A stretch of DNA of 64,000 nt from Felis catus. Taxonomy: Eukaryota. Where the stretch lies: assembly GCF_018350175.1 (NCBI RefSeq), contig NC_058368.1:58096001-58160000 (forward strand). The letters run 5' to 3'. The stretch's first letter is position 1. The number at the start of each line of letters is the position of its first letter. The notes under the pieces were generated by a model, which made no database searches, was not told where the DNA came from, and saw only the letters and a list, made by a program, of their open reading frames with translations. Both the position numbers and the translations under genes were made by a program. Shown in pieces: positions 16,088-56,097 of this stretch.

Positions 16088-19076
16088 TCTTCTTTATCCA
16101 TTCATCTATTGATGGACACGGGTTGTTTCCATAATTTGGCTATTATAGATAATGCTGTAATAAACATGGGATGTATGGATCTCTTTGAATTAGTTATTTT
16201 GTATTTTGGGGGTAAATAGTAGTGCAATTCCTGGATTGTAGGGTGATTCTATTCTTAACTTGTTTTGATAAATCTTCATACTGTTTTCCACAGTGGCTAA
16301 GTCAGTTTGCATTGTGTGCAAGAGTGTTACTTTTTCTCCACATCCTGACCAACACTTTTTTCTGGTATTTTTGTTTTTAGCCATTCTGACAGGGGTGAAA
16401 TGATATCCCATTGGAATTTTGATTTGCATTTCCCTAATGATGAGTGATGCTGAGCATCTTTTCATGTGTCTGTTGGCCACCTGTATGTCTTCTTTAGAGA
16501 AATGTCTATTCATGTCTTCTGCTTATTTTTAATTGAATTATTTGTTTTTTGGATGTTGAGTTTTATAAGTTATGTATTTTGGATACTAACTCTTTATCAA
16601 ATATGCCATTTGCAAATATCTTCTCCCATTCTGTAGGTTGCTTTTTAGTTTTGTTGATTGTTTCTTTCACTGTGCAGAAGCTTTTATTTTGATGTAGTAC
16701 AGATAGCTTATTTTTGCTTAGTTTCCCTTGTCTCAGGGGACTTACCTAGGAAAAAAAAAAAACTTGCTCTAGCTGATTCCAGAGAAATTACTGCCTGTGC
16801 TCACTCTTAGGACTTTTATGGTTATAGGGCTCATATTTAGGTCTTTTATTCTTTGAGCTTATTTTTGTGTATGGTTTAAGAAGGTGATCCAGTTTCATTC
16901 TTTTGTATGTTGCTGTCCAGTTTTCCTAACCATTTGTTGAAGAAACTGTCTTTTCACATTGGATATTCTTTCTGCTTTGTCAAAGATTAATTGGCCATAC
17001 AACTGTAGGTTTATTTCTGGATTTTCTATTATTTTCTATTGATCTATATTCCTATTTTTGTGCCAGTCATACTGTTTTGATCACTACAGCTTTGTGATAT
17101 AAATTGAAATCCAGAATTGTGATGCCTCCAGTTTTGCCTTTTTCTTTTTCAAGATTGCGTTGGCTATTCAGAGTACTCTGTGGTTCTATACAAATTTTAG
17201 GATTGTTTATGTAGTTCTGGAATTCTGTGAAAAATGCCAGTGGTATTTTGATAGGGATTCCATTAAATGTGTAGATTTCTTTGGGTATTATAAACATTTT
17301 AACAATATTTGTTCCTCCAATCTATGAGCATGGAATGTCTTTCCATTTTTTTTTGTCACTTTCAAATTCTTTTATCAGTGTTTTATAGTTTTCAGAGTAC
17401 AGGTCTTTCAGCTCTTGTTTAGGTTTATTCCAAGGTACCTTATTATTTTGAGTGCAGTTGTAAATAGGACTGTTTTCTTAATTTTTCTTTCTGCTGCTTC
17501 ACTATTGGTATATAGAAATGCAACAGATTTCTGTACATTGATTTTGTATCCTTTAACTTTACTAAATTGTTCATAAGTTCTAGCAGCTTTTCTTCTCTTT
17601 TCTTTTGCTTTTTTTGGCAGTCTTTCAAGTTTTCTATGTATATAGGATTATGTTATCTATGAATAATGAAAATTTTACTTCTTTCTTACTAGTGTGGATT
17701 TTTTCTTTTCTTGTCTGATTTCTTAGGATAGAACTTCCAGTACTATTTTTAATAAAAGTGGTGAAAGTGGACTTCCTTGTCTTGTTCCTGACCTTAGGGA
17801 AAGGGCTCTCAGTTTTTCACCGTTGAGGATGAAGTTAGCACTGGGGTTTTCACATATGGCCTTTATCATGTGGAAGTATGTTCCCTCTAAAATGATTTTG
17901 TTGTAGGTTTTGATTATGATAGATGTTACACTTTGTCAAATGTTTGTCCTGCATCTATTGAAATGGTCATATGGTTCTTATCTTTTCTCTTACTGATGTG
18001 TTATATCACACTGATTGATTTGAGAATATTGTACCACCCAACCAAGGAATAAATCCCACTTGATCGTGGTGAATGATTTTTTAAATGTATTGTTGGATTT
18101 GCTTTTGTTTTTGTTTTTGGTATTTTGTTGATAGTTTTTGCATTTATGTTCATCAGAGATATTGGTGTGTAGTTCTCCTGTCTTTATCTGGTTTTGGTTT
18201 CAGGGTAATGCTGGCTTCATAGAATGAATTTGGAAGTTTTTCTTCCTTTTCTATTATTTGGAATAGTTTGAAAATAATAGGTCTTCACTCTTTTTTTTTA
18301 ATACTTGATAGAATTCACCTGTGAAACCATCTGATCGTGAATTTTGTTGGTTGGGAGTTGTGTGATTACTGGTTAAATTTCTTTGCTGGTTATCCATATG
18401 TTCAAATATTCTATTTCTTCCTGTTTAATTTTTGGTAGTTTTTATGTTTCTGGGAATTTGTCCCTTTCTTCCAGGGATAGGGAATGTCCAATGTGCTAGC
18501 ATATGGTTTTTCATAATATTCTCTTAATTTTTTATATTTCTGTAGTGTTGGTTATTTCTCCTGTCTCATTTGTGATTCTATTTCTTTGAGTCCTTTCTCT
18601 TCTTGATAAGACTGGCTAGATGTTTATCAGTTTTATTGATTTTTTTTAAACAAGCAATTCCTCGTGTGATTTATCTGTTCTTTTGTATATTAGTTTCTGT
18701 ATCATTTACTTCTGCTCTAATTCTTATTATTTCTTTCTTTCTGCTGATTTTAGGGGTTTTGTTGTTGTTGTTGTTCTTTTTCTAGCTCCTTTAGGTATAG
18801 TGCTAGATTTTTTACTTGAGAATTTTCTTGCTTCTTGCAGTTGGCCTGTATTGCTATAAACTTCCACTTACAACTGTTTTTGCTGCATCCCCCAACCATT
18901 GTTTTCATTTTCACTTATTTCCAAGTACTTTTTTATTTCTTTTTTTATTTTGTACTTGACCTATCCATTGTTTAGTAGCATGCTATTTAACTTCCAAGCA
19001 TTTGTGATCTTCCCAGAATTTTTCTTTTGGTTGACTTCTAGTTTCATAATGTTGTGTTCAGAAAAGATGCATAGTA

Positions 19077-37464: not shown

Positions 37465-40012
37465 TGTAAAAATAGCATTTGACAATATCCAACACCTATC
37501 CATAATAAAAAACTGTCAGTAAACTCTTTTCTCAACTTGATAAATAATATTTCTAAAAACCTTCAGCTAATACCAAATGTAATTGTGACAAACTTGAAGC
37601 TTTCCCACTAAAATCAGGAAGAAGGCAAAAATGTTCCCTCTTACCCCTGCTTTTCAACATCATATTAGAAGTCCTAGCTAATATAGTAAGAAAGATTTGG
37701 GAAGGAAGAAATACAACAGTATTTCTAGGTAACAGAATGCTCAGTGTGTAAAATCCAAAAGAATCTACAAAAAATCTCCTGGAACTAATTGATTATAACA
37801 AGGTTGCAGGATACAAGGCTAATCCAAAAAGTTAATTGCTTTCCTATATATCAGCAGTAAGCTGGTGGAATTTGAAATGGAAAACACAATAGCATTTACA
37901 TTAATAGCCTAAAAAACCAAAGCACTTAGGTATAAATCTAACAACATTTGGGCATAATTTATATGAGAAAAAAGATATAACTTTAATAAAAGAGAATAAA
38001 GAAGAAGTATATAAATGAAGAGGTATTGCACATTCATGTATAGAAAGATTTAATGCTGTCAATATGTGAGTCCTTTCAGCTTGATGTATTAATTCAATGC
38101 AATTCCAATAAAAATCTCAGCAAGTTATTTTGAGGATATAAAAAAAAAAATGATTCTAAAGTTTACATGGAGAGGCAAAAAACCAGAGTATCCAAAACAA
38201 TACTAAAGAACAAAGTTGGAGGGCTGACAATGCCCAACTTCAAGTTATACTATAAATACACAGTAATCAAGACCAAGTGGTACTGGAAAGAGAATAGACA
38301 AAAAGATCAATAGAACATAATAGAGAGCCCAGAAATAGGTCCACATCAATAGGGTCAACTGATTTTGACAAAGCAACATACAGTGGATCAAAGATCATCT
38401 TTTCAACAAAAGTCACTGAAACAACTCGACATCTACATGAAAAGAAAAAAAAAAAAGAAAGGAAAGGAAAGGAAAGGAAAGGAAGAAAGAAAGAAACAAA
38501 CAAACAAACAAACTAGACACGGACTTAACATCCTTCATAAAATTAACTCCAAATCAATCAACAAACCTAAATGAAAAATATCAAACTATAAAAGTCCTAG
38601 AAGATAACAAAGGAGAAAACCTAGATGACATTGGGTATATAACATTAAAGACATAATCCATGAAAGAAACAATTGATAAGCTGGAGTTTATTAAAATTAA
38701 AACCTCTAGTCTACAAAAGAAAATATCAAGAGATTTAGGAGACTAGCTAAAGACTGGAAGAAAATATTTGTAAGAGACAAATCTTATAAAGGACTGTTAT
38801 TCAAAATATACAGTGAACCCATAAAACACAACAAAAAGAAAACAACCTGATTAAAAATGGACCAAAGACCTTAACAGACACTTACCAAAGAAGATATAGA
38901 GATGGTAAATAAGTATATGAAAAGATATTCCACATCATACACTACCAAGAAATATAAATTAAAATAACTATGAAATAACCTATTATAATGGCCAAAATCC
39001 AAAATAATGACAATATCAAATGCTGGCAAGGATGTAGAACAACAGGAACTCTCATTCATTAGTAACACGAAAACAAAATGGTATAGCCACTTTGGAAAAC
39101 TGTTTGGAGGTTTCTTACCAAACTAAACATACTCTTACCATAAGATCTATCTATTGATCTCTTGATATTTAACCAAAGAATTAAAAACTTATGTTCACAC
39201 AAGAACATCAAGATGTCCTTCGGTAGGTAAGTAGATAAGCTGTGGTATATCCAGACAATGGAATATTATCCAGAATTAAAAAAAAATGAGCTATCAAGCC
39301 TTGAAATGATATGTAGAAAACTTAAATGCACATTAGTGATTGGGAGAAGCTTATGTAGAAAGGCTACATACTGTATGATTCCAACTATGTAACACATAGA
39401 GACAATAAAAAGATCAGTGATTGCTAGGGACTGGGTGGGGTTTAAGAGGTAAATAGCTGTGGTGCAGAAAAATTTTACAGCAATGAATTACTCTGTATGA
39501 TATTGTAATAAAGAATGTTGAAAAAAAATATATAGCTCCATATCTATATCCATAGCCTGTACCAAACCTAGAGGCAGTCTGAAGTGATAATGATGTATCA
39601 ATGTAGATTCGTTAATTGTAACAAATGTACTACACTGGTGGGGGGATGTTGATAATGGAGAAGACTATGCGTGTAAGGGCAGGGGATATGTGGGAAAACT
39701 CTATAACTTCCTTTAATTTTATAATGAACCTAAAACTACTTTAAAAATAAAGTTTAGGGGCGCCTGGGTGGCGCAGTCGGTTAAGCGTCCGACTTCAGCC
39801 AGGTCACGATCTCGCGGTCCAGGAGTTCGAGCCCCGCGTCAGGCTCTGGGCTGATGGCTCAGAGCCTGGAGCCTGTTTCCGATTCTGTGTCTCCCTCTCT
39901 CTCTGCCCCTCCCCCGTTCATGCTCTGTCTCTCTCTGTCCCAAAAATAAATAAAAAACGTTGAAAAAAAAATTAAAAATAAAATAAAATCAAATAAAGTT
40001 TATTAAAATAAA
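37465..40012 (+). mobile_element. L1MC-type ORF2 (RT to C-terminus) and 3' end; a young SINE sits in its tail
   Basis: gcatttgacaatatccaacacc (AFDNIQH), ttcaacatcatattagaagtcctagc (FNIILEVLA); terminus gaacctaaaactactttaaaaataaagttt. Confidence 0.85.
39757..39990 (+). mobile_element. Very young felid CanSINE
   Basis: CpG-intact; A box tggcgcagtcgg, B box gttcgagcc; TSD aaataaagttta. Confidence 0.97.
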
Positions 40013-40705
40013 TAGGAAGATAATATATATAAATAGGAGGCTAATCTTCTTGGTTTATTATAAAATTTAGATTTGTGGAAGGCATAAAAAATATATTAAA
40101 CTATTTAAAATGATCAGTGTAGTAATATGGCAGCAAAGAGAAAGTGGTTATCACAGAAAACCAATATGTGTTAAATGCAGATAATATATTGAATGAACTG
40201 TAGAGTGAAACTTGTTATTAAATTAGCATAGTGGAGATCACTGGGCTTCCTTCTACTGTATGATAAACTCAAGGATCTGGCCTGGATTCAATACATTTCA
40301 ATAGAAGAAAAAGAAAGACTACATGAGTAGAGCATTCTTTTTGATGATGTACTACAACACAGAAGCACAGAAAAGGATACAGTGGTAACTGGAGGAAGAT
40401 GTTGAGTTAAAAGTGACATTTGTTCATTTGTTTTGTGTGATATATAATACAGTGTTTCCTAATGTTGATATGAATTGCTGTTCAGGAAGAAAGGGAAACT
40501 TGAAAATGGGAATTTTTTGTATAGATGCACCAGTGGGATTCAATGCACATGTGGAGAGCCTAATCTTGGATGGAAATATTTATGATTCATCCACTGTAAT
40601 AGGGAAAAAGATAGAAAAAAGAAGTTTAATGAATTTGGCACTGGGTAGATGTGGGAAAGTTCTTGATTGCTTGAATTAGCTCACTGGTAAAAGAAACAAA
40701 ATTTC

Positions 40706-40931
40706 TTTTTTTTTTTTTATTTTTTTTTCAACATTTATTTATTTTTGGGACAGAGAGAGACAGAGCATGAATGGGGGAGGGGCAGAGAGAGAGGGAGACA
40801 CAGAATCGGAAACAGGCTCCAGGCTCTGAGCCATCAGCCCAGAGCCTGACGCGGGGCTCGAACTCACGGGCCGTGAGATCGTGACCTGGCTGAAGTCGGA
40901 CGCTTAACCGACTGCGCCACCCAGGCGCCCC
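40706..40931 (-). mobile_element. Very young felid CanSINE
   Basis: Perfect 18-bp TSD taaaagaaacaaaatttc at 40688-40705 and 40933-40950. Confidence 0.97.
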
Positions 40932-41065
40932 ATAAAAGAAACAAAATTTCAACTAATTTATGACTGGGAAGTAGATTTGGAGAATTAGTTTCACAGAAAA
41001 GTAGAAAAATGAATTCATAGGACAAGTATAGGAGTGCCCACTTGAGAGTTACATCGGTTAAAAAA

Positions 41066-41067
<2 letters not shown>

Positions 41068-41099
<32 letters not shown>
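41068..41099. repeat. (GT)n microsatellite
   Basis: Directly visible. Confidence 0.95.
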
Positions 41100-41102
<3 letters not shown>

Positions 41103-41518
41103 CAGTTATATCTACATGCTGCTTTACAGAGGAGAATGTTTAATTCAAGTGTAGTTGTAGTACACATACCCCAGTTTGAAGAGTTTAATCAAGAGAGATA
41201 GAGCAAACTGGAGGATATATGCAAGGGTATAATTAAACACGTGGACAATTGGTGCTAGGACCTCTCTGCAGAGAAGTGAGGATGTGAGAGGTTGATGAAA
41301 AGTGAAAAAGTCAGTAGTTTGTAGGTCATGGAAGTCTATAAAGATTTTAGAGTCAAGGTATTTGAATGATTAAACTATAAAAAGAGAAGGTGACAGGGAG
41401 ATAACTGAAATCGAGATTCAGCAGGTGGTTCTATTGTTGTTAATTAAAAATCTAGGTATGACAATTAGAATGTCTGAGGTAAGAGAGAAGAAAAGTTCGA
41501 TAGAAGACAGGAAGTCAA

Positions 41519-41657
41519 GGGTTGCCTGTGTGGCTCAGTCAGTTGAGCATCTGACTTTGGCTCAGGTCATGATCTCATAGCTTATGAGTTTGAGCCCTGC
41601 ATCAGGCTCTGTGCTGACAGCTCAGCCTGGAGTCTACTTTGGATTCTGTGCCCCCCT
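41519..41657 (+). mobile_element. CanSINE lacking CT tract and tail (3'-deleted)
   Basis: Head and body to ggattctgtgccccc, then unrelated AT-rich sequence. Confidence 0.85.
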
Positions 41658-43299
41658 ATTATTTATCTATTAATATATTTACCTATTTAACATTGAATGA
41701 CCATAAATGAGAAAATATACAATTGGTGAAATACAATGAAATGCACTAAAATCCTCACTGAATGAAGAGAAATATGAAGGAAGTAGATGACTGCAGATAG
41801 GGATAGATCACGTTATATTATGTGAAGGCATAGAGATCAACGTGTTGGTCATTTTAAGTGCCCAGATATTAAGGAATTTGGGGAGGTTGAGGTGTTTGTG
41901 GGAACTCAGATAACCTAGAATGTAGGGCATAATGAGTCTAACTCTCTTGCTAAATTAGAGACTTAGTCATGTTGATCATGTTCATATGGGTAACACTGCC
42001 CTTTATAGTTTCCTTTATGGCAGTGGCTCTTAGGCAGAACATTTAAGTGGAAGTAAAGTATAAGTCTCAGCAGGAACATAAGGAGTTCTCTGGGTCTTAG
42101 TTCAACCATGCTATCTTACTATATGAAGGAAGGCAAGAAATGAAGAGGCTTAGAGTAAATGCTAGAACTTGAATGAAAGCAATGACAACTCATGCCACCC
42201 CATCAATTATTTAACAGAACAAAGTATAATGACAAGTCTTTCTTAAGCTAGTATTATATATGTCATAGTGTTATGTCATGGCTGCATGTTATTTTTATCA
42301 ATATTTTTGAATGTAAAAATAACCCTGAATACTCACTGATGCATTATTTCAGAGATATCCCGATGGTATAGACATGTCCTCCTTTGGGGGAACCAAACAA
42401 CTAAAAATGCAAAACAAAAATTTCAAAATTATTGAACATTCATAAGTGAAGGATTGAACTTATCAAATATCTTTCATTGCCTAGGAAAGTATTTTTTTTG
42501 CACTAACTTTTTACTCTTCTCAATCACCTGGACAATTTTTAAAACAAGTATGTATTCCTTTTACTTCTTTTTTTTTCAGAAACTCAAAATTTTATGATTA
42601 TTACTTTAGTATAAATAAATCAAAGAAGTTTGTGTTTATCTAGTAAGAATTCAGATTTTTTTAAAAAAAGTGGTTGAACAGTTTCAATATTTAGGAAAAG
42701 AGAAATGTGTGGAAGGATATCAAATGGAAGAGCAATAGAAGTTGGACCAAATTTAAAATTTATCTGAAAGTCATTCAAATGAAATGTTGTACAAATAATT
42801 GATTTGGAAATACAACAGCAAACTGTTCTTGGTAGAATAAAAACAGTTACTAGCTCGGCCAAGCTAGGAATGTGACAGGTTAATTTATTTTCAAATAGTA
42901 TAGCTTTTCTGTTCCCAGTTCCTCTTGTAAACAAGAGTAGGGATGCGTGAAAATTTTATAGAGTATGAAATAGAAGATAAAGGAGATTTTTGAGGATATG
43001 AGTCTAAATAAAATTTCAATTTAAGTGAAATAGTATTAAAATAATTATTTATTAAATTAGCATCATAGCTTTTGCTACATAAATAACTTATAAAAGAGAA
43101 GGATTTAATATGACTGGTGAAAGTGCAACAAGGGTCAAGTAAGTATGAAACAATATTATAAGAAAAATGAATAGAACCATGTGTTCCTGTTTAAAATATT
43201 TTTGATTCTATACCTTTTCATAAACATTGCAGTATTGGGGTATAGGAACCAAGCATACTCACTGTATCTTAATTCAATTTAGGGGGTTCACTTCACTTA

Positions 43300-43513
43300 T
43301 TTTTTTAAATGTTTATTTATTTATTTTGAGAGAGAGAGAGAGCGCGTAAGCCCTGGAGGAGCAGAGAGAGAGATGGTGAAAGAGAATCCCAAGCAGGCTC
43401 CGCACTGTCATCATAGAGCCTGACACAGGGCTTGAACACATGAACCATGACATCAGGGCCTGAGCTGAAATCAAGAGTCGCACCCATAACTGACTGAGCC
43501 ACCTAAGCACCCT
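43300..43513 (-). mobile_element. CanSINE
   Basis: T tail, GA tract, head gagccacctaagcaccc. Confidence 0.92.
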
Positions 43514-43608
43514 ATCAGCTATTCTGAATATAGGAAAGTTGATTGGCCAAGAAAATAAGTTTGTTACCAAACAGTTATTTTTACTCTTTTTTAAATATTA
43601 CATCATAT

Positions 43609-43848
43609 GGGGCGCCTGGGTGGCGCAGTCGGTTAAGCGTCCGACTTCAGCCAGGTCACGATCTCGCGGTCCAGGAGTTCGAGCCCTGCGTCAGGCTCTG
43701 GGCTGATGGCTCGGAGCCTGGAGCCTGTTTCCGATTCTGTGTCTCCCTCTCTCTCTGCCCCTCCCCCGTTCATGCTCTGTCTCTCTCTGTCCCAAAAATA
43801 AATAAACGTTGAAAAAAAAATTAAAAAAAAAAAAAATAAATAAATAAA
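43609..43848 (+). mobile_element. Very young felid CanSINE
   Basis: TSD taaatattacatcata at 43592-43607 and 43849-43864. Confidence 0.97.
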
Positions 43849-44204
43849 TAAATATTACATCATAAAAAGTATGTAAAATACTTTACAGTACATACATAAA
43901 GTACATAAAAATACTTTACTGTTACTAGAATAAAAAAAAAAAAAATTCCAGAAACTGAAAAATAAAACCTTCGGTTACTGTGTAGATTAGTTTCATAAAA
44001 TATAGGGGGAATTTAGTTTCAAAAAAACATTTGAGAGGCTGGCCTTATAGTTTTAAAACTCCATGTACTGGGGAGTTTAGGGGCTTTAGAAACAACACAC
44101 ACGTGCATACAGGCACATACTTCTTGGGTAGATTTTTATACTGTACAACATGTATCACTAATGCATTTATTATAACATGGGCTTTATTAGTACAAACATA
44201 CCAA

Positions 44205-44345
44205 ATTATAACTTGGGAGACTTGGGTCCTATCTCCTACTCTTGCTAGTTCAGTTATAACCTTGAACTGACCATTACCCTTTGAATATTCTTTTCTATAG
44301 CAGAGATAATAACGATGCCCTCATCACATGCATATTGTGATAACT
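44205..44345 (+). mobile_element. MIR relic
   Basis: acttgggtcctatctcctactcttgctag..ataaccttgaac...ctatagcagagataataa. Confidence 0.45.
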
Positions 44346-44497
44346 TGAGCTTGGGAATTGTCTACAGTATAAAAATACAAGACAATATTTTAGTAATTAT
44401 GAAAGGCAATAGAAGTTCCAAAAGAAGGCCTTTGCCTTCTCCTGAATCGCCAGCATTCCTCCGGAAGGCTTTATTAAATGCCAAGACTTTAGGCATT

Positions 44498-44556
44498 TAA
44501 GTTTTATGTAAGCTTTGTGGTAACCACAAAGCAATAACCTATCATCGATACACACA
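44498..44556 (+). mobile_element. Short L1 inter-ORF-like fragment abutting the RPSA retrocopy
   Basis: ttttatgtaagc..tggtaaccacaaagcaa(t)aacctat..gatacaca matches recalled L1 inter-ORF consensus text. Confidence 0.55.
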
Positions 44557-45334
44557 AGGTCTGTATGGAGTTGTTCTGGATTCCCGTCCTAACTTAAAGA
44601 GAAACATTTACAATATCTGGAGTCCTTAATATCCTGCAAATGTAGGAGGATGTCCTCAAATTCCTTGCAGCAGACACCCACTTACGTAGCACCAACCTTG
44701 ACTCCGAAAGAGAGCAATAATCTACAAAAGTAAACGTAAAGGCGTCTATATTTTAAGTCTGAAGAGAACCTGAGAGCAGCTCACGGCGGCAACTGGTGCC
44801 ATTGCTGTCGCTGAAAACTGGGCTGATGTTAGTGTCACATTCTCAAGAAATACTTGCCAGCGAGGTGAGCTGGAGTTTGCTGCGACCACTCGAGCCAGTC
44901 GTATCATTTGGCCGCCTCACTTCTGGAAACTTCAGTAACCAGTTCCAGGGAGCCTCCTGTGCTGCGACTTCTGATGGTTACATATCTAAGGGCTGACCGC
45001 TATCCTCTCAGAGAGGCTTCTTATGTTAACCTGCCTATCGCTGTTCTGGGTAACAGGGACTCTCCTCTGCATTATTTGAACAGAGATCTCCCGCGCAACA
45101 AGGGAGCTCCCCAGGCGGGTCTGTTGTGATGGATGCCACCTCCGAAGTTGTGCACATGCGCAACACCGTCTCCCGTGAGCGCCCACGGGAGGTCACGCCT
45201 TCTCTTTCGTTCGCCAGAAATTCTGAGAGGATTGCAAAAGGAAAAGCAGGACCCGGGTGATGGGGCTGTGACAAAGGAGGAATTTCAGGGTAAGTGGACT
45301 GCTTCAGCTCCCGAGTTTACTGCAACTAAATCTG
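44551..45334 (+). pseudogene. RPSA: Processed pseudogene of 40S ribosomal protein SA (uS2 / 37-kDa laminin receptor); 5' UTR plus about codons 1-243 of 295
   Basis: 5' UTR gttgttctggattcccgtc..aacttaaag; ATG mutated to ATA (44613); TAG at 44643; peptide relics [14 protein letters not shown] and [21 protein letters not shown]; intronless; frameshifts; no 3' UTR or poly(A). Confidence 0.96.
44581..45320. promoter_or_regulatory. CpG-island-like segment over the RPSA retrocopy
   Basis: About 30 CpGs counted by eye in ~740 bp, against near absence in the unique flanks; NRF1-like tgcacatgcgca at 45151-45162. Confidence 0.5.
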
Positions 45335-45360
45335 TTACACAGAGTTTTTAAAACAGATAT

Positions 45361-45495
45361 TTGTCTGTTTGTTTTTGTTTATTTTTAAAGTTGGCTTCAC
45401 GCCCAGCTCCCGGCTTAAACTCACGACCCTGTCAAGACCTGAGCTGAGGTAAAGAGTCAGTTAGAGGCTTAAATGACTAAGCCTCCTTTCGCCCC
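45361..45495 (-). mobile_element. Short old-type CanSINE
   Basis: T-rich tail, aagacctgagctgaggtaaagagtc, ends ttcgcccc; flanked by acaga(ta/c)ttt. Confidence 0.75.
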
Positions 45496-45537
45496 CACAG
45501 ACTTTAAAGACTTTTTTCCTGAGGGTTGGGGGGGGGT

Positions 45538-45551
45538 AATTTTTTTATTTT

Positions 45552-45582
<31 letters not shown>

Positions 45583-45738
45583 AGGGCCAGAGAGAGAGAG
45601 GGGGAGAGAAACCTAAGCAGACTCTACTGGTAGCACGGAGCTCAACATGGGGCTCCAGCTCAGGAACCGTGAGATCATGACCTGACCCAAGCCAAGAGTC
45701 AGACGCCTAAGGGACTGAGTCACCCAGGTGCCACCCCT
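45538..45738 (-). mobile_element. CanSINE
   Basis: T tail, (GA)n, head gagtcacccaggtgcc. Confidence 0.9.
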
Positions 45739-45844
45739 CACCCGCAGCCAGACATTTAAACAGAAAGGAGAAAAAAGGTTGCTAGAAAATACTTTCTAAA
45801 AAAAAAAAAAAACCCACAAACAAAACCTGTTTCCTTGATAGGTA

Positions 45845-46210
45845 TAGTGCTGTGCAACTCGTCAAATGCCAGCCATGTTGGCTTTCACAGCGTGGCATTT
45901 TGGGGTCTCATCCCTCAAATAAGTCTTACAAATTGGGGCACTAGCTGTATGGTTCAAACATTTTGCTTCCCAGAAAGAAGCTGGGAGTTGGGACTTCCCT
46001 ACCGGTTTATGACACTGTGTCCAGGTGGAGTTTATGGTAAACCTTTCCTACCTGTTGCCAAGTGGGTATGTTCGCACTTGCCTGATGTGAAGGGCTCATT
46101 CATCTAGTTCCTGGATTTCAGATTGCACCCTGTGTAGCTGTACATTCAGTTTATTCTTGGAGTAGAGGGGAAGTTCAAGAGTCTTTGATGTCACCCTCTT
46201 GGTCCCTCCC
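45845..46210 (-). mobile_element. L1 5' UTR fragment
   Basis: gtgtagctgtacattcagtttattcttggag ... tcaccctcttggtcc, resembling the reverse complement of an L1 aagatgg start. Confidence 0.6.
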
Positions 46211-46269
46211 TCTTACTCTTTTATTAAAAATAGATAATTCATCAATCCTGGATTTTATGTCCAAGATTT

Positions 46270-46381
46270 TATTTTATTTTTAAAAATATTTTAAGTGATC
46301 TCTAAACCCGACATGGAGCTCAAATTTACAACCCCGAGATAAAAGTTGCATGCTCTATCAACTGAGCCAGCTAGGTGCCCC
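46270..46381 (-). mobile_element. Short old-type CanSINE
   Basis: TSD tccaagattt on both sides; head ctgagccagctaggtgcccc. Confidence 0.88.
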
Positions 46382-46430
46382 TCCAAGATTTGAGATGTTG
46401 TCTTATTTGTGAAAATATTTTGCTGGCCAA

Positions 46431-46617
46431 GGGCACCTGGGTGGCTCAGTCAATTGAGCTTCGTCTTTGGCTCAGCTCATGATCTCCCTGTTCATGAGTT
46501 AAAGCCCCTGACAGCTCAGAGCCTGGAGCCTGCTTTGCATTCTGTGTCTCCCTCTTTCTCTCTGCCCTTCCCCTGCTCGTGTTCTGTCTCTCTCAGAAAT
46601 GCATAAAAACATTAAAA
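46431..46617 (+). mobile_element. CanSINE with an internal deletion
   Basis: TSD aaaatatt(t/a)tgctggccaa at 46412-46430 and 46618-46636. Confidence 0.93.
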
Positions 46618-47427
46618 AAAATATTATGCTGGCCAATAAACAGACATCTGGCAAACCTGTCATTCTTGGATCCCCTTAGATCTCTTAGAATAAAATCTGC
46701 TTGGAAAAGTAATACTAAGTCTAAAGGTTGCAGGAATAATAAACATTTTGTTCAGGGTGTGATCTTCTGTCCTAGGACTACAATTACTTTTTGGTGTTAT
46801 ATTTTGTCCTTGATAATTAAGATTCCCTAAAAGTTCATAACTTCCTTGCTTAGCAAGCTCTTATCTACAAATCAAATTATTTTAGACCATTCTCCTTTTT
46901 CATAATTTCCAAGGATAAAAGATCAAAGATGTGAGCTAAGTAAGCATTTGATGCATAAAAGTAGTTAACTTCTTAGATATAAAGTAGAAACATATTACTT
47001 ATAAACTAATCAGTCAAGTAGCAAGTTACCTGAAAAGTGATGCTTGAACTCAAATACCTCACTGACCCCAAGAAATTCAAGTTTTTCATACTTCTTACGG
47101 TTTTTAAAAATAATGTCAATCATACTTTATATTAGAAATTGCTGTTTTAAGCTTCCACATGGGTGCAAGGTGATGAAGAAATAAGGAAGACTGCTAATTT
47201 GAAATTTTCTCCAAAAAACCTTGTATATACTTAAGTGCACTTAAGAGAAAATCCAAGCATCCATCAAATTCTTTATTATCCTGAAAAAGGAAATATAGAA
47301 CTAGAACTCCTTGAGGAATTAAGTAACCTTCCAAGACTTGGCAAGAGTACCAAAATGTTAAGAAAAAAAAAAATAGAACTGGGATGGTCTACTGGAAATC
47401 AAAACAAAATATACACATACTGACTTT

Positions 47428-47640
47428 TTTTTTTCAACGTTTTTTATTTATTTTTGGGACAGAGAGAGACAGAGCATGAATTGGGGAGGGGCAGAGAGAG
47501 AGGGAGACACAGAATCGGAAACAGGCTCCAGGCTCCGAGCCATCAGCCCAGAGCCTGACGCGGGGCTCGAACTCCCGGACCGCGAGATCGTGACCTGGCT
47601 GAAGTCGGACGCTTAACCGACTGCGCCACCCAGGCGCCCC
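47428..47640 (-). mobile_element. Very young felid CanSINE
   Basis: CpG-intact; TSD taca(c/t)atactgacttt at 47412-47427 and 47641-47656. Confidence 0.97.
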
Positions 47641-47696
47641 TACATATACTGACTTTAAAGTTAAGAAAACCTGTGGTAAATATCTACTTTGAAATT

Positions 47697-47918
47697 AAAA
47701 AAAAATTTTTTTAATGTTTTTTATTTATTTTTGAGACAGAGAGAGACAGAGCATGAACGGGGGAGGGGCAGAGAGAGAGGGAAACACAGAACCGGAAGCA
47801 GGCTCCAGGCTCTGAGCCATCAGCCCAGAGCTGGACGCGGGGCTCGAACTCACGGACTGCAAGATCGTGACCTGAGCTGAAGTCTGACGCTTAACCGACT
47901 GAGCCACCCAGGCGCCCC
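47697..47918 (-). mobile_element. Young felid CanSINE
   Basis: TSD tctactttgaa(a/g)tt at 47683-47696 and 47919-47932. Confidence 0.96.
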
Positions 47919-48177
47919 TCTACTTTGAAGTTAAATAGCTGTATACTTATCTTCATTTTTTTGAAACTTTATTTTTTATTAGTGAATTGAGTAAAATAGC
48001 AAACAAATCAAATAATTATTCTATTAATTTATATTACATTATTGAAACAATCATCATCCTTTAGGATAACTCATTTGTAAAACTTTATTGATGAAGAAAT
48101 CTTGACTGAGATAAATATGCTATTTCAGGTCATTCTATTGATTTTTAAAGCCTGAAGGAAAGCATATTGTAAGAATT

Positions 48178-48207
48178 TGTGTGTGTGTGTGTGCGCGCGC
48201 GTGTATG
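48178..48207. repeat. (GT)n(GC)n alternating purine-pyrimidine tract
   Basis: gtgtgtgtgtgtgtgcgcgcgcgtgtatg. Confidence 0.9.
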
Positions 48208-48344
48208 AAGTTGCTTACTAATATTTCACTTAACTGCAAGTTTTGGAACTTAACATCATTCAGTTAGTATATAAATAGATTGGATTGTTTCATTACATAT
48301 ATTATTCATGTTCAAAACAATTACATATGTATTGATACCAAGCT

Positions 48345-48440
48345 AAGTATCATCTTCATTTTACAGAGGAGAAAACAGTGGCTCAGAGATTCAAGCTTAA
48401 TATCCTGCTTTTCATAAAGTCAAAATAGCACCAAAACAGA
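48345..48440 (-). mobile_element. MIR core relic
   Basis: cattttacagaggagaaaacagtggctcagaga. Confidence 0.65.
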
Positions 48441-49464
48441 ACTCAAAGAACACAGGACTGAACTCCAAAAAAAACCATACAACTCTTCCCAGACCATTAC
48501 CTATTCACACAGCAGACTTGATAAGAAGAAAAAAATGAGACACTATCAAATTTCCATTTATGTAAGTATGAGATTTAACTGCTTCAGACGTAAAGAAATT
48601 TGAGTAAGAAAATATAGTTCTTTTTTCTTATAAAGCATTTTAAAAAACTTCATTGTTCACAGTGCTTGAATTTAAATTTGATGTGGACTCTTGACTTTTG
48701 TTCACTGAAGCATTTCCTATTAGCATTCTAATTACATCAAACACACATACTGGAACTGTTATTCTGTGCTTATTATTTCCATATAGACTTCATTGAAAAT
48801 TAAGCTCTAACTTACGTTATCTCAGTGGAGTTCCAGAACATGACATTTAGTACTTGAGAAATCAAAGTTGCATTATTTTTTTTATGTTGTAACCATAGCA
48901 GTTATATGTGTGCTTCTTGTTTTTCAAGCCTGAAATTAACTACTTGAAATGTGCATTTTAACTATATGATAAGCATTGAGTTCCAAAGAAAGAGTTTGCT
49001 TCGGTGAAGAATAACTAAGCTATGGGCATTGCTTTCAATCTTTAATAAAATGCAGATTACCCATTAAAAAGCAAAGCTTTCATTTCATAAATTGAATAGA
49101 AAGATGATTGAAATAATTATAACTGGTTAAAGTAGGTCACTTTGAAAAGTCAAATATAAGTATCTCTCTAGAGGGCTTGTAGTGTTTTTATTTAATTTTG
49201 AATAGAAAATATTTTCACTTATTTTAAACATTGAGTGTTTTGTTTTCTTCCCTTAAAACTAGAATTGACTGGTATGAATATTTCAACATAAAGTCTTTAT
49301 TTAAAAATAAATCCTGAAATTTTTATTAATTTTAGATAAACACATCTTCAGTATTCATTGAGATTAAAATTCTTACAGAAGATATTTATTCTTCTACTTT
49401 GCTAGCAACTCAACCTTATGATAAGTAGTATGGTCTAATAGTCACTCTTGAAATAAGATAAAAG

Positions 49465-50012
49465 TCTAGTGAAATATGTTAAATGTTAAAAGGAAAAGAA
49501 ACAAAGGCCAACCTAAAAGTCTGTATCTAGTGAAATTATCATTTAAATAATGAGTAAATATTAAGACAAATAAAAATTGAGGGCATTTTTTCCCAGTAGA
49601 CCTGTCTTAAAGGAAATTTTAAAAGAAGTTCTTTATAGAAAAGGAAAATGATACAGTTCAGAAATATGGGTCTATGTAAAGAAAACAGTAGTGTTATAAA
49701 GGGACTATTATAGGTAAAATAAAATATTTTATTTTCTCCTTTTTAATTTATCAGCTAAAATTTTATTTAAAATAATGTATGAGGTGGTTATAGTGTGTAG
49801 ATAAAGTAAATGACAGGTATGTTAGACAGGTGGGAAATTTTGGGAATATTCTGTTATAAGGTGTGTGCACTACACATCAAGTGGTACAGTGCAATATGAA
49901 GGAAGATTTACATTAATTGTAAATTATATTTCCAAATTCAGGCAAACACTAACAACAAAAAAGGAAGTATAATTAACATGCTGAGAGAATAGAAAATGAA
50001 GTCATGAAAAAC
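49465..50012 (+). mobile_element. Old L1 ORF1 end and inter-ORF relic
   Basis: ctgtatctagtgaaattatc..., ccagtagacctgtcttaaaggaaattttaaaagaagttc. Confidence 0.7.
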
Positions 50013-50139
50013 TATACTTCCAGCTGTTCAGAATTTGTTGTCTATTGTTTGTTTTGTTTTGTATTATTGCCAGCTCTTTTTTGCGGTGTTCAACAAATGA
50101 GGACAGTTTTATTCATTATTTTATATCTTTGTGCACTTT

Positions 50140-50643
50140 TAAAAAATTTTATTTGACTAGCTAGACCCTTCTAGTACTATGTTGAATAGAGGTTGTTAAG
50201 AAGAGGTATCATGGTCTTTTTCCCAATATGGGGAGGAGAGACACTCACTTATTATTAACTATGACATTAGCTATAGGTGTTCTGTAACTGTCTATTACTA
50301 GTTTGAGAAAATTCAATTCTGTTGGTAGTTTCCTAAACGCTTATAACAGGAATGGATGTTACATTTTATCAAATGCTTTTCCTGCATTTATTGATATTAT
50401 CATGTGTAAATTTTAGATTTGTTTGCTTGTTTTGTCTTTCCTATCCTATTATATGTAGAAGTAGGTAATGTTATTTATGTTCATTGATTTATGGTTTTTA
50501 AACTACCAAATTTTCCTTAGATAAACCCCACTTGGTCATGGTGTATAAAGGTTTCTATGTTTATAGATTCAGTTTGTTAATATTAAAAAAATTGTGTGTA
50601 TATTCATGAAAGATATTTTTCTGTGGTTTTCTTTTTTTTCTTC

Positions 50644-50709
<66 letters not shown>

Positions 50710-51030
50710 AATCTTCATCCTATATCCATGTTGGGGTAATATAAAGAGTTGGAAAGTTAGGGTAGGATTAGGATATCTTTACCTTAGGTGTTTGATAAAG
50801 TTAACTCAGTTTCATTTATGGGAAGATTTTTTAATTAGTTCACCTTTACTACATGATCTATTTACAAATTTGATTGATTCTTAATTCAATTTTGGTGATT
50901 TTTATCTTTCTAGGAATTTGTTGATTTCATCTCATTTGTCTTATTCTGTAGCATACAGCTATTCATAATATTTCTTTATAATTATTTTAACATCTTAGGA
51001 TCTATAGAGGTGCTCTCTTTAATTTCTATA
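50140..51030 (-). mobile_element. Old L1 ORF2 relic, with (TTTC)n at 50641-50709
   Basis: ttctagtactatgttgaataga, tttatcaaatgcttttcctgcat, ataaaccccacttggtcatgg. Confidence 0.75.
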
Positions 51031-51347
51031 AATTGAATTGTAATGACCATCTACACTGAATATATGTTTCCCTTACACTGCTATTAGAAAAATTCATAAT
51101 AAGTGCATTATATGAAAATGAGATGCTTTTAATACCATACAGAGAAGTTCTTTATCTTCATGTAATTCAAGGAAGATTTCTATTTTTAAAATTTTATCTC
51201 ACTGTTTATATTTCTGAAGGTATACTAATAACCTATTTACTCATTCAGTAACACTTAACCTTTCATTCTGCTTTAAAATAAATTAGGTAAATGATAAAGA
51301 AAAAATTAGAAAAAACAACTCTGATCTTTAAGAGTATCTCACTACAG

Positions 51348-51612
51348 GGTGCCTGGGGGGCTCAGTCATTAAGCATCTGACTTCAGCTCAGGTCATGATC
51401 TCACAGTTCTTGAGTTCAAGTCTCACATCAGGTGTGCTTGAGCCCTGCTTCAGGTGAACATGCTCATCACTTCAGATGAGCCCCAGTTCTCTCTTCCTCT
51501 CCCTCTCTTTCTCCTGGGATTCTCTTCCTCTCCCTCTGCCAATCCTGGGATTCTGTCTCTCTTTCTCTGCCCCTCACTCAATTGCACACACTCTCTCTCA
51601 AAAAAAAAAAAA
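51348..51612 (+). mobile_element. CanSINE variant with internal tandem duplications
   Basis: Normal head, repeated gagccc..cttcaggtga and cctgggattct units; degenerate TSD ..tct(c/t)actaca. Confidence 0.85.
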
Positions 51613-51769
51613 TTTCTTACTACATAAAGGATTCTTAGAATTTTAGCAGCCATCTTAATTTTAATGGCAATTCACACTTCAACCCTAACATTGTCCTACT
51701 ATCCCATATGTTATATGTAATGTATAGCATATGACATATTCTCATATGTGGCATAAGATAATGTTTCTT

Positions 51770-51982
51770 GGGGTGCCTGGGTGGCTCAGTAGGTTAAGTG
51801 TCCAACTCTTGGTTTCGGCTCAGGGCATGTTATTACAGTTCTTGAGTTTAAGCCCCACATCGGGCTCTGTGCTGATAGGATGGAGCCTGCTTGGGATTCT
51901 CTCTCTCTCTCTGACCCTCCATGCCTTTTCTCTCATAAATAAAAATAAATAAAATAAATGAATAAAACTAAAAAATATATAT
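51770..51982 (+). mobile_element. CanSINE
   Basis: TSD ataatgtttct at 51758-51768 and 51983-51993. Confidence 0.93.
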
Positions 51983-51983
51983 A

Positions 51984-52104
51984 TAATGTTTCTCAAACTG
52001 CAGATTTTTAAGAACCATGGGGTCTGCACAAATTCTGACTCAGCGCCTGTCAGTAATTTCAGGTGATTCTGATGTAGTGATCTTAAATACTCTTAGTGAA
52101 CACT
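51984..52104. mobile_element. MER5-type hAT-Charlie MITE relic
   Basis: tgtttctcaaact ... caggtgattctgatg ... gaacactg TIR-like ends. Confidence 0.55.
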
Positions 52105-52800
52105 GTTCTAAGAGGACTGTATAACACTGATATCTATGCAGATCAGTATAGTTTCTTTTTATTATTGTCCCAAGTAAAAACTATGTGTTAACCCATACTT
52201 TGTACAGTCAAGCAAATGTTTGATAAATACCACTTGACATAACATCAAAATCTGGTTGAATTTAATTTTTATCTTCCTATTTGTTATGCAGCTTATTGTT
52301 TTATAATTCTTGAAAAAATACTGAATTTTATAGAAAAATAGAGAAGTTTCCAATGTAATATGATCTTTAAAAGTCTGTAGTGGTATAGCACAATTTTCAA
52401 GATAAAAAGGCATACCTGGATTGTTGTATGCATTTTTCTTCATGTGTAAACTTTATTGACTGACATACCCCCCCTCACAGACCTCAAAGCAGACTTTGTT
52501 TCATTCCATCTTTGAACTGTGTTATTACACAAATATGTGTTTCAAACTTAAATTGTCATTTGTGTAAGTTAATATTCAAAATGCTGTTTTTGTTTGGTGT
52601 ATTTGCAGCTTGATTGTTGATCAATAAATATAAATAAATTTCTAATAACATTTTTCACTAAAAATTAATTTCAGAAGTAATGATTAAGACTGTAATGTGA
52701 TTTCTATAAAAATGATGACTCAACATTTCAAAATTGTGAAATACATGTCAAAACAAAATATTGTTTTAAAAAACAAAACTGCCAAACCACTTGATGCCAC

Positions 52801-53297
52801 TGATAGATATGATAGAATCATGTCTCCAAATAAATGTATGTCCTAATTCCTAGGATTTATGAATGTTACCTTACATAGTAGAAAAGACTTTGCAGATTTG
52901 ATTAATTTAAGGGGATTATGTGGGTGTGTCCTGTGACATCATTAGGATTCATAGAAGTGGAAGAAGAGATAGGCAAGTGAGAGAGACAGGGAAATGTGAC
53001 CACAAAAGAATGGTCAGAGAGATGCAATGGTGTTGATTTTGAAGATAGAGAGGCTGCAAGTGAGGGATTAAGCTGCCTATGGAAGCTAGCAAAAAAAAAA
53101 AAAAAAAAAAAAGGATTTTATTTTAAAGCCTCCAGGGATAAAGGCAGTCCTGCAAATAGCCTGCTTTTACTGATTTTAAGCCAGCGAGACTTACATCAGA
53201 TTTCTAGCCTATACAACTACAAGATAATTAATGTGTGTGTATTAAGCAACTACGTTTATGGTAATTTATTATGCCAGCAGTGGAGGACTAAATAACA
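52801..53297 (+). mobile_element. MaLR solo LTR (MLT1D-like)
   Basis: tgaatgttaccttacat..aaaagactttgcagat; aagataattaatgtgtgtgtattaagcaact..tttatggtaatt. Confidence 0.8.
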
Positions 53298-53789
53298 TGA
53301 GGAAATATTGTAAACATGAACCACTAGTGAGTGACCTATAGACCAAACTTTGCAGAACACTGGAAAGGTCTTAAATTTTGACAGCAATCAGAACCATTAG
53401 AGACGGTCATTTTAGCAAGGTCTAATGAAATAGAAGTAGGACAATCATTAAAATTAAAAAATACTTGAGTTCATCCACTCAAGTCCACAAAAACATCATG
53501 CTTTTATTTACCGTCATCATTACTGCAGTGTAAGCAAAAGTAAGCCTTACTTACAAGCAGGGTTAATGTATCTACTAAATCTGATTTTAAGTGATTTTTA
53601 TTAGTGATGCATTCTAATCAGAATATTAAAAGCTTATATGACTTCAGATATAAATATGTGTCAACCAAGAAGTCCACAGCTGATTGTGGGGTTAATATTT
53701 TTAAAGCATTATAAAACTTGTGAAATGTTTTTACTGTACAGAAAATCTTATTGCTAGATATTATTTTTTGACGACTAATGTATGCAAGT

Positions 53790-53950
53790 ACTCTTCAGAT
53801 ATTACTTAATTTAATCCTTGCAAAAGTCCTGTGATATAAATTATATTATTCCCATTTTAAATAGAATCTGAGATAAAATGCTTTATTTACGTTTCAAAAT
53901 TCACCTTTGCTAAGCTTCAGAGTTGTAATAAAATCTAGATGAAGCCTACA
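53790..53950 (-). mobile_element. MIR relic
   Basis: atttaatccttgcaaaagtcctgtga ... tattattcccattttaaatagaatctgag. Confidence 0.55.
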
Positions 53951-54697
53951 CCTCTGTCCTAAATTAATATACTATATGCAAACCCCAACCCCATTTTCAA
54001 TGTTGAATCACTTTATTATTTTCTTCCTCCTGCACACTCATTTTTGACTGTACTTATATACCCATGTGTGGTTAAATATTGTATTTTGTTTTAATGAATT
54101 TAAATATTTAATAACTTTATGTATTGATTTTTAACTAACATCAAATTTTCATTTCCTGAATGGGTATGCTTCTACAAAATAAAACTAGAGTTGGGCCATA
54201 GTGAGGATAAGAAGACATAAAACAAGTTTAATTACAACTAAAGAAATTAATATATAGTGACGCACACCTTTGTACATTGTGGATATTCTTTTAATAGAAA
54301 AATACTCTAAATGTTACTTAATGTGGTATAAACATCACTGAAGTACGTTTAAAACAGATAATTTCCCATATCTTCCATTGGGTGGCAGCATAGGGTCATT
54401 ATTTGAATCTCCATTTGCACTTTTAAGTAGCCAACTTAAATGGTAAAAACACAAGAACAGAATATTTTAGAAACATTTTGTGGGGGTTGTAAAATATCTT
54501 TCTTCATGAGGAGTATTATAACAAAAGCTCATTGTTATTTATGACTGTAAATTATATTTAAGTTTAGGAAAGATAAAATTCAAAATTGTGGTTAGTTACC
54601 CTTCAAATTATAACTTTTCCCATAACATCTTCAGCATATAATAATTTTCTTTGAGAGAATATTATTACTGTTTAATAAATTATTACTATTTAATAAA

Positions 54698-54897
54698 TTT
54701 TTTAATGTTAATTTATTTATTTTTGAGAGAGACCGAGTGCAAGCGGGGGAGGGGCAGAGAGAGGGAGACACAAATCCTGATATGGGGCTCAAACTCACGA
54801 ACTGTGAGCTCAGAACCTTACAAGGGGCTCATGTTCGGTGAGGTCATGACCTGAGCTGAAGTCAGACGCTTAACCGACTGAGCCATCCAGATGTCCC
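54698..54897 (-). mobile_element. CanSINE with a rearranged body
   Basis: TSD tact(a/g)tttaataaa; ggggctca occurs twice and the usual gcaggctccaggc segment is missing. Confidence 0.88.
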
Positions 54898-55109
54898 TAC
54901 TGTTTAATAAAAAATAAAATATGCTTTAAAAATCTGTCATAATTAATTAGTGAGACATAGATTATTTATTGTATATAATTCTAAAAACTATATGAACATT
55001 TAAAGAATTTAAAGAATGAAACATGGCATTATGAACTGTCTCTAGAATGTCTATTTCTGTGCAGCATAAGGGCAAAGAAAATATTCCTATCATCCAAACT
55101 GGCTGTTCT

Positions 55110-55450
55110 CTGTTTTCTAACTTAATGTCATCACTGTCCAACTGAGTTTATCAATCCAGTAAAGTCAATTTTTTCAAGCTGGCCATCTCATTTTACCTTA
55201 TTCCATGCATCAACTCTTACTCTGTCTTACCAATTTACCACTTAAATATTTATGGGATCTGTCCAATCCTCTCAATTCCCATCATTTCCCTGGTCTGAGC
55301 CACCATTCACCTAGATAACCCCACAAGCCTTATAAAACACCTACCAGACTCAAGATCCACGGTTACTAGGTATCAGCATGAGAGAATTCTCTAAGACACA
55401 AATTGCAATATACCATAACTTTTTAATATTCATTTAAAGGTTTCTCCTTC
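55110..55450 (+). mobile_element. L2 relic
   Basis: ccctggtctgagccaccattcacctagataaccccacaagcctt. Confidence 0.5.
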
Positions 55451-55601
55451 CTCCGATATGTATAATACAACAAATGAAGAGAAACCCGTTAGGTGGTTGA
55501 GATTAAGTATTAAATAAAAGAGAAATTAACTTTCAAATGTGGAGTTTGAATATTTCAGAGAAAATAAATAGAAAATAAATAACATTAAAATCATGACTTG
55601 A

Positions 55602-55761
55602 GGGGTGTCTGGGTGGCTCAGTCAGTTAAGCATCCTACTTCTACTCAGGTCATGACCTCACCACTCATGAGTCCCGTGTAAGGCTCTGTGCTGACAGCTC
55701 AGAGCCTGGAGCTTGCTTCCGATTCTGTGTCTCCTTCTCTCTCTGTCCCTCCCCTGTTTGT

Positions 55762-55811
<50 letters not shown>

Positions 55812-55843
55812 AAAAATAAATAAACATTAAAAAAATTAAAAAA
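55602..55843 (+). mobile_element. CanSINE with long (CT)n
   Basis: TSD taaaatc(a/g)tga(c/t)ttga at 55586-55601 and 55844-55859. Confidence 0.95.
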
Positions 55844-55873
55844 TAAAATCGTGATTTGAAAAAATTGTGTTTT

Positions 55874-56097
55874 GGGGCGCCTGGGTGGCGCAGTCGGTTA
55901 AGCGTCCGACTTCAGCCAGGTCACGATCTCGCGGTCCGGGAGTTCGAGCCCCGCGTCAGGCTCTGGGCTGATGGCTCGGAGCCTGGAGCCTGTTTCCGAT
56001 TCTGTGTCTCCCTCTCTCTCTGCCCCTCCCCCGTTCATGCTCTGTCTCTTTCTGTCCCAAAAATAAATAAAAAACGTTGAAAAAAAAAAAAAAGAAA
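55874..56097 (+). mobile_element. Very young felid CanSINE
   Basis: Perfect TSD gaaaaaattgtgtttt at 55858-55873 and 56098-56113. Confidence 0.97.

Follow-up and report, generated by a model that had tools for sequence, protein, structure and literature searches.

The locus analysed here lies within a 64-kb stretch of the Felis catus genome (hereafter the window) that is AT-rich, with a GC content of 33% and a CpG observed/expected ratio (O/E) of 0.20, and that is rich in carnivore-type tRNA-derived SINEs. Positions 44581-45320 of the window are a processed, coding-dead copy of RPSA. Two fragments of the copy match uS2/40S SA in PDB (E values of 1.5e-11 and 5e-8), and a frameshift-aware alignment shows that 44613-45325 is colinear with codons 1-240, preceded by 5' UTR, with no intron-sized insert. 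As a stand-in for the parent we used the protein P0092, which represents a mammalian RPSA cluster with 771 members and carries the majority residue everywhere except at positions 241 and 264 when compared with 119 homologues among the matches listed. The 5' UTR was placed using an RPSA mRNA contig (L001) that is fish-like by its protein. The parts of the insertion are as follows.

44524-44550, plus strand: left copy of what may be a target-site duplication, decayed, compared with 45814-45840
44560-44612, plus strand: RPSA 5' UTR remnant, from DNA alignment to the mRNA contig, starting at about 44560
44613-45325, plus strand: intronless, coding-dead RPSA coding sequence remnant, codons 1-240, with 29 CpGs (PDB matches and protein alignment)
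45340-45500 (approximate), minus strand: old decayed carnivore tRNA-derived SINE with 4 CpGs (HMM hit at 45412-45486)
45540-45745 (core 45557-45732), minus strand: second old SINE, 15% diverged from the consensus of its group and retaining 1 of 7 ancestral CpGs
45760-45812, plus strand: probable RPSA 3' UTR end and poly(A) tail; the A-run is seen directly and the UTR is a probable assignment
45814-45840, plus strand: right copy of the possible target-site duplication, directly after the poly(A), compared with 44524-44550

The original prediction described this copy as coding-dead on account of an ATG to ATA change, a stop at 44643 and frameshifts, and the alignment bears this out. The start codon reads ATA at 44613, there are in-frame stops at codons 11 (TAG, 44643), 55 (W55 to TGA) and 175 (W175 to TGA), and five indels are frameshifting and two are in-frame deletions. 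Any coding function was rejected. None of seven ORF products was present in the protein collection, and two word-based protein searches with fragments of the pseudogene returned no match. A 23-nt RPSA pattern had no matches in viral, genome and metagenome contigs and none in plasmids, and a metagenome protein scan for RPSA found no mammalian mRNA, the best of at least 80 loci (92%) being fish-like. A Pfam scan of 81 of the 110 long stop-to-stop ORFs of the window, which is a weak test for short exons, found no host exon above the curated cut-off. A weak reverse-transcriptase (RVT_1) remnant at 17726-17935 on the minus strand (E value of 5e-4, under the curated cut-off) is probably old L1 ORF2.

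The coding sequence breaks off where the SINE at 45340-45500 sits, and RPSA codons ~241-295 are absent between the coding part and the tail. This gap (45325-45760) is exactly where the two old SINEs stand in tandem. The loss of these codons suggests an insertion-associated deletion. If the SINE at 45557 is inside the retrocopy, it sets a minimum age for the insertion. The tail ends in a run of 15 A at 45798-45812, and the sequence from 45760 to this run is what we take to be the end of the RPSA 3' UTR; a protein-level test of this assignment was not significant (score of 31 versus 46 for the best random tile). The candidate target-site duplication is suggestive, its two copies sharing 22 matches over 29 columns (3 mismatches and 4 gap columns), a score reached by 1.3% of 3000 random 60-mers. 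A 21-bp near-perfect palindrome at 44512-44532 lies just left of the retrocopy and overlaps the left candidate copy; each of its arms resembles a RUNX site, and the neighbouring bases would fit a putative ORF1-ORF2 spacer of an old L1. The window's six young SINE copies, which are CpG-rich and 92-99% alike, all fall within 39757-56055, 16 kb around the retrocopy, and the first 39 kb of the window has none. At 48186-48203, purines and pyrimidines alternate over a short stretch that has a (CG)n core and is a possible Z-DNA-forming microsatellite.

The retrocopy was originally singled out for having about 30 CpGs in about 740 bp of an otherwise CpG-depleted window, and the count is exact: 44581-45320 (740 bp) contains 30 CpGs, with a GC content of 50.3% and an O/E of 0.64 versus 0.20 for the window. 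The densest 500-bp window at the locus holds 24 CpGs, compared with a maximum of 9 and a mean of 1.9 in 500-bp windows starting outside 44100-45400 and free of overlap with the six young SINEs. The Gardiner-Garden and Frommer definition of a CpG island asks for at least 200 bp, GC of at least 50% and O/E of at least 0.6, while that of Takai and Jones asks for at least 500 bp, GC of at least 55% and O/E of at least 0.65. The copy is an island under the former, with 242 passing 200-bp windows, but not under the latter, for which no 500-bp window at the locus passes and GC peaks at 54.6%. Three features can be placed on the CpG map.

44727-45359, no strand: Gardiner-Garden-passing 200-bp windows (242, window scan)
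45092-45213, no strand: densest CpG cluster, 12 CpGs (CpG map)
45151-45162, no strand: NRF1-like palindrome formed by codons L183-R184-M185-R186, 11/12 to the NRF1 consensus

The 12-CpG cluster is marginally denser than predicted by a uniformly unmethylated model (P ~0.09, scan-corrected). The retrocopy flanks have CpG O/E values of 0.28 and 0.19 and the SINE at 45557 has kept 1/7 of its CpGs, suggesting that any unmethylated domain is narrow. The right flank with the lower value (45840-46210) is GC-richer and resembles what is presumably the 5' end of an old minus-strand L1 pointing into the retrocopy. Its CpGs have decayed, so it is an unlikely source of hypomethylation.

The RPSA protein hardly varies, so no outgroup is needed to polarise any non-synonymous change of the copy. 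With the parent represented by its protein sequence, gains were scored only at sites that this sequence fixes. Of the 432 fixed sites, 95 (22%) have changed, by 59 transitions and 36 transversions. For 19 of the 29 CpGs in the coding part, no synonymous codon of the parent could have supplied the dinucleotide (obligate gains), and 17 of these 19 are separated from the nearest gap by more than 9 columns. These include the changes to which the original prediction drew attention: the CpGs replacing conserved codons in the EHPWEVMP region are W195>R (TGG>CGG), M198>T (ATG>ACG) and H193>R, and the atcccatgc>ctcccgcgc and accatt>accgtc gains correspond to T>C at C163 and A>G at I189 relative to P0092. 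A parental origin of the CpGs was rejected, since these 19 are impossible in the parent whatever its codon usage. Hypermutable positions of CpG type number approximately 16-17 in control RPSA copies, in agreement with the earlier estimate of ~15 parental CpGs from the human mRNA.

An ordinary methylated pseudogene, its CpGs being parental, accidental or assembly errors, has next to no probability as an account of the locus, even allowing that the locus was chosen for its CpG count and that its felid parent was inferred from protein. In addition to the 19 impossible CpGs, the observed 29 CpGs are more than 5 SD above simulations of a methylated copy. The simulations used rates tuned to the copy's own substitution spectrum and an ancestor with an assumed low prior for wobble CpGs. 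CpG hypermutability of 1-2x produced 23-36 CpGs, which fits the observed number, whereas hypermutability of 8-15x produced 5-13 CpGs, and none of the 150 runs at each setting attained either 29 CpGs or 19 gains. A value of 4x was marginal and required a doubled creation rate. The transition-rich spectrum (59:36) and the near-identical young SINEs nearby argue against sequence error. Chance and assembly error were rejected.

To compare the balance of gains and losses with that of other RPSA copies, as the original prediction had proposed, we used mammalian RPSA-like proteins chosen by name or appearance from 120 matches listed of 3510, together with four others, leaving out fish, birds, amphibians and marsupials as well as proteins that looked like isoforms of the genuine gene. 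There were 49 controls for the gain:loss count, and 47 for codon rates after removal of two near-duplicates. The controls are younger (mean amino acid divergence of 8%), weighted towards primates and not independent of one another, and losses reach saturation as copies grow older. Scoring W>R, M>T, H>R and C>R as gain-type changes and R>H/C/Q/W and T>M as loss-type changes, the ratio is 4:3 in the copy and 10:158 in the 49 controls (P=0.0008). In the 47 controls, nine arginine codons change at 8.2 times the rate of the remaining codons, which marks them as sites of parental CpGs. In the copy, 4 of the 8 that can be scored still begin with CG, while the expected survival is 2% for a copy 7.4 times more diverged than the controls, scaled like the controls without back-mutation. 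Likewise, the ratio of CpG-creating to comparable non-CpG transitions is 0.62 in the 47 controls and 2.9 here (4/26 vs 4/76), although these counts are small. Within the window itself, two groups of old SINEs (~11% diverged, half as much as the copy) have kept 5/79 and 15/86 of their ancestral CpGs.

Parental CpGs were nevertheless lost by deamination-type changes at R117, R155 and R184, and probably at G3, V87 and P119; three of the four lost arginine CpGs went this way. When the hypermutable positions outside arginine codons are included, retention is approximately 4/15, below the ~60% expected without methylation. This suggests that protection was partial or began after insertion, and that the copy was not always or not fully unmethylated. 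Taken together, the substitution record of the copy is one of reduced CpG deamination.

A recombination hotspot with GC-biased gene conversion (gBGC) could in principle have fixed the CpGs, as gBGC is reported to create new intergenic CpG islands in dog (PMC4350167). The high divergence of the copy would fit, as would the SINE at 45557, which is the most diverged of 10 and has W>S changes at 7/49 sites versus 28/426. CpG-creating transitions (12/64) are also approximately 2-fold more frequent than other W>S transitions (13/149; P=0.06). However, the W>S excess and raised GC* at non-CpG sites by which a gBGC hotspot is recognised are absent from the copy. Across all fixed sites, W>S changes number 35/213 and S>W changes 41/219 (P=0.61), and at the 284 CpG-free fixed sites the corresponding numbers are 18/143 and 26/141. 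GC* at the CpG-free sites is 0.41 (95% interval of 0.28-0.54), compared with 0.42 in the SINE controls, and 75 of the copy's 132 four-fold sites are A or T. Furthermore, some felids have a recombination deficit at PRDM9-independent hotspot loci (PMC11161765). We therefore rejected gBGC as the main driver, and regard fixation of the CpGs at such a hotspot as very improbable. The original prediction had left open either an unmethylated germline state or strong gBGC at a hotspot; the first is supported as a reading of the sequence, with gains far beyond the methylated expectation, and the second is not supported, GC* being 0.41.

The substitution spectrum of 44613-45325 has some further features. 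S>S transversions at fixed sites are asymmetric between strands (C>G 10/87 vs G>C 4/132, post hoc P=0.02), and several of them occur at CpT. T>C changes number 14/88 and A>G changes 11/125 (P=0.13). The S>S asymmetry could hint at minus-strand transcription or 5hmC-linked changes.

At non-CpG sites the copy is 18.7% diverged (53/284; 0.21 corrected), compared with 11% for old SINEs (P=0.001), and this is approximately twice the cat branch since the split from dog, taking half of the cat-dog divergence of 18.3% (PMC4350167) as the cat branch. The copy would thus either predate Carnivora or have accumulated changes at a higher rate. Sperm hypomethylated regions (HMRs) of recent birth are reported to undergo faster substitution even outside CpGs (PMC5793779). 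The same divergence could be read as the sign of re-copying, whereby an older RPSA pseudogene gained its CpGs in an unmethylated region elsewhere and reached this position by secondary retrotransposition or duplication too recently for them to decay. A divergence about twice that of the old SINEs and of the cat branch, combined with a clean 15-A tail and a possible target-site duplication, would be accommodated in this way. We consider this improbable. In two-phase simulations, no more than 1 of 200 runs reached 29 CpGs when the final methylated phase was 20% or longer; the data tolerate an early methylated phase of up to ~30% of the divergence and a final one of up to ~10% (~2-2.5% divergence). 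The candidate target-site copies differ, within 29 columns, by their 3 mismatches and 4 gaps, the old SINEs lie between the coding sequence and the tail, and re-copying would still require germline hypomethylation, at another place.

A recent local burst of substitution in DNA that stayed methylated, with new CpGs yet to decay, is very unlikely. It would account for a divergence exceeding that of the nested SINEs, for the frequent transversions (36/95) and for the asymmetry between C>G and G>C. However, a methylated first phase of 50% left at least 4 parental arginine CpGs in only 3-4% of runs and 29 CpGs in 2.5-16%, there is no obvious mechanism, and the young SINEs at a distance of 1-5 kb share 92-99% identity with one another. 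Equally doubtful is the preservation of germline-methylated CpGs by purifying selection for a regulatory role, for example as an enhancer, imprinted DMR or lncRNA promoter. Methylated CpGs inside CpG islands are reported to decay approximately 2-fold more slowly than those outside, for which the authors invoke selection (PMC4804638), and imprinting control regions gain CpGs (PMC2987832). Against this, the copy shows no constraint, being more diverged than nearby neutral repeats, and a 2-fold effect is too small for a drop in hypermutability from ~10-15x to 1-2x.

We conclude that the locus, a dead processed copy of RPSA, acquired 19 or more CpGs without GC bias, and that it has likely been unmethylated in the germline, probably the male germline, for most of its history. 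An mRNA copy of RPSA would have inserted before or near the root of the carnivores. At most a short methylated phase would have come early (~30% of the divergence or less), with little or none at the end (~10% or less), and the copy would have become and stayed unmethylated in the germline. The male line is the most likely since sperm methylation tracks, and is reported to predict, CpG>TpG rates (PMC4804638). CpGs arising by ordinary neutral substitution would then persist, escaping erasure by deamination of 5-methylcytosine, and the outcome would be a weak orphan CpG island whose O/E has drifted up from ~0.3. The approximately 2-fold excess of TpG/CpA>CpG changes may reflect a bias reported for CpG islands. 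A DMR methylated on the maternal side and unmethylated in sperm would be expected to leave a similar record.

A methylation-sensitive factor may hold the unmethylated state, and a speculative candidate binding site is the palindrome at 45151-45162. It is the only site in the 64 kb with one mismatch or fewer to the 12-nt NRF1 consensus, and it falls inside the densest CpG cluster. The inferred parental form of codons 183-186 would match this consensus 12/12, and the site has lost one CpG in the copy. It is common to all RPSA copies and confers no protection in the controls, where R184 has changed in 17/43 and R186 in 19/43. An E2F-type TCCCGC at 45089 is a weak signal (4 in the window vs 1.6 expected). 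NRF1 is reported to bind unmethylated retroelements in male germ cells (PMC12420836), and its motif to be enriched at promoters of expressed retrocopies (PMC4772013). It is conceivable, but unlikely, that a perfect NRF1 palindrome in RPSA codons 183-186 was bound after the unmethylated cDNA had inserted at a permissive site and blocked male-germline methylation for tens of millions of years, so that relaxed decay by itself, without an inherited island or gene conversion, made the CpG-poor coding DNA into a new CpG island and a promoter active in the germline.

The start of orphan CpG islands is debated, being put down to an escape from methylation, to biased gene conversion or to selection. 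The answer at the RPSA copy is that CpG decay was lost without GC bias, and it provides a clean single example of an island forming in coding sequence poor in CpGs. As one locus with only a putative function, it has a modest direct importance for biology. In any mammal, the protein-anchored test could be applied to the many ribosomal-protein retrocopies, which would serve as a record of germline methylation in the past. We found no report of a CpG-gaining RPSA retrocopy in the literature covered, mostly open-access papers.

Among known systems, the closest are lineage-born distal sperm HMRs and orphan CpG islands. Births of distal sperm HMRs are common and older HMRs have a higher CpG O/E (Qu et al. 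2018, PMC5793779). As in the cases described there, the RPSA copy is a small intergenic CpG-enriched patch with slowed CpG decay, an intermediate O/E and possibly faster non-CpG substitution. Unlike in that study, where hypomethylation was measured, here it is deduced from substitutions, and the substrate is a retrocopy of a near-invariant protein in which each gain can be polarised; the word "pseudogene" does not occur in the study's main text. The original prediction also drew a parallel with PPP1R26P1, whose CpG85 island in RB1 was inherited from a CpG island in exon 4 of its parent; retro-RCC2 and retro-OTUD4, as well as retro-KIAA2013, are other retrocopy-derived islands described in the same papers (PMC3839921, PMC4122923). 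The parallel holds insofar as a processed copy was spared the usual loss of CpGs that its sister copies underwent, but not for the origin of the CpGs. The PPP1R26P1-type islands are inherited from parent islands, intronic and of measured methylation (RB1 being imprinted), whereas the parental RPSA stretch is CpG-poor, at least 19 of the 29 CpGs are new and the evidence is the sequence itself.

The gBGC-generated islands at PRDM9-independent hotspots (PMC4350167, PMC11161765) are likewise new, intergenic, unmethylated (presumptively so here) and fast-evolving. Their defining W>S excess is absent from the RPSA copy, and this, with a GC* of 0.41, sets the locus apart from dog-type gBGC islands. 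The bias towards TpG/CpA>CpG changes in CpG islands has been ascribed to aberrant TDG repair in a proposal based on in vitro work (PMC4041421). The RPSA copy resembles this in its approximately 2-fold excess of CpG-creating transitions over other W>S transitions with no general GC bias, but its excess is borderline (P=0.06). Imprinting regions that carry maternal methylation likewise retain CpGs and acquire new ones (PMC2987832). Retrocopy islands are known, and so are births of distal sperm HMRs; the RPSA copy is an island made mostly of new CpGs on CpG-poor coding DNA, apparently through relaxed decay and not through conversion.
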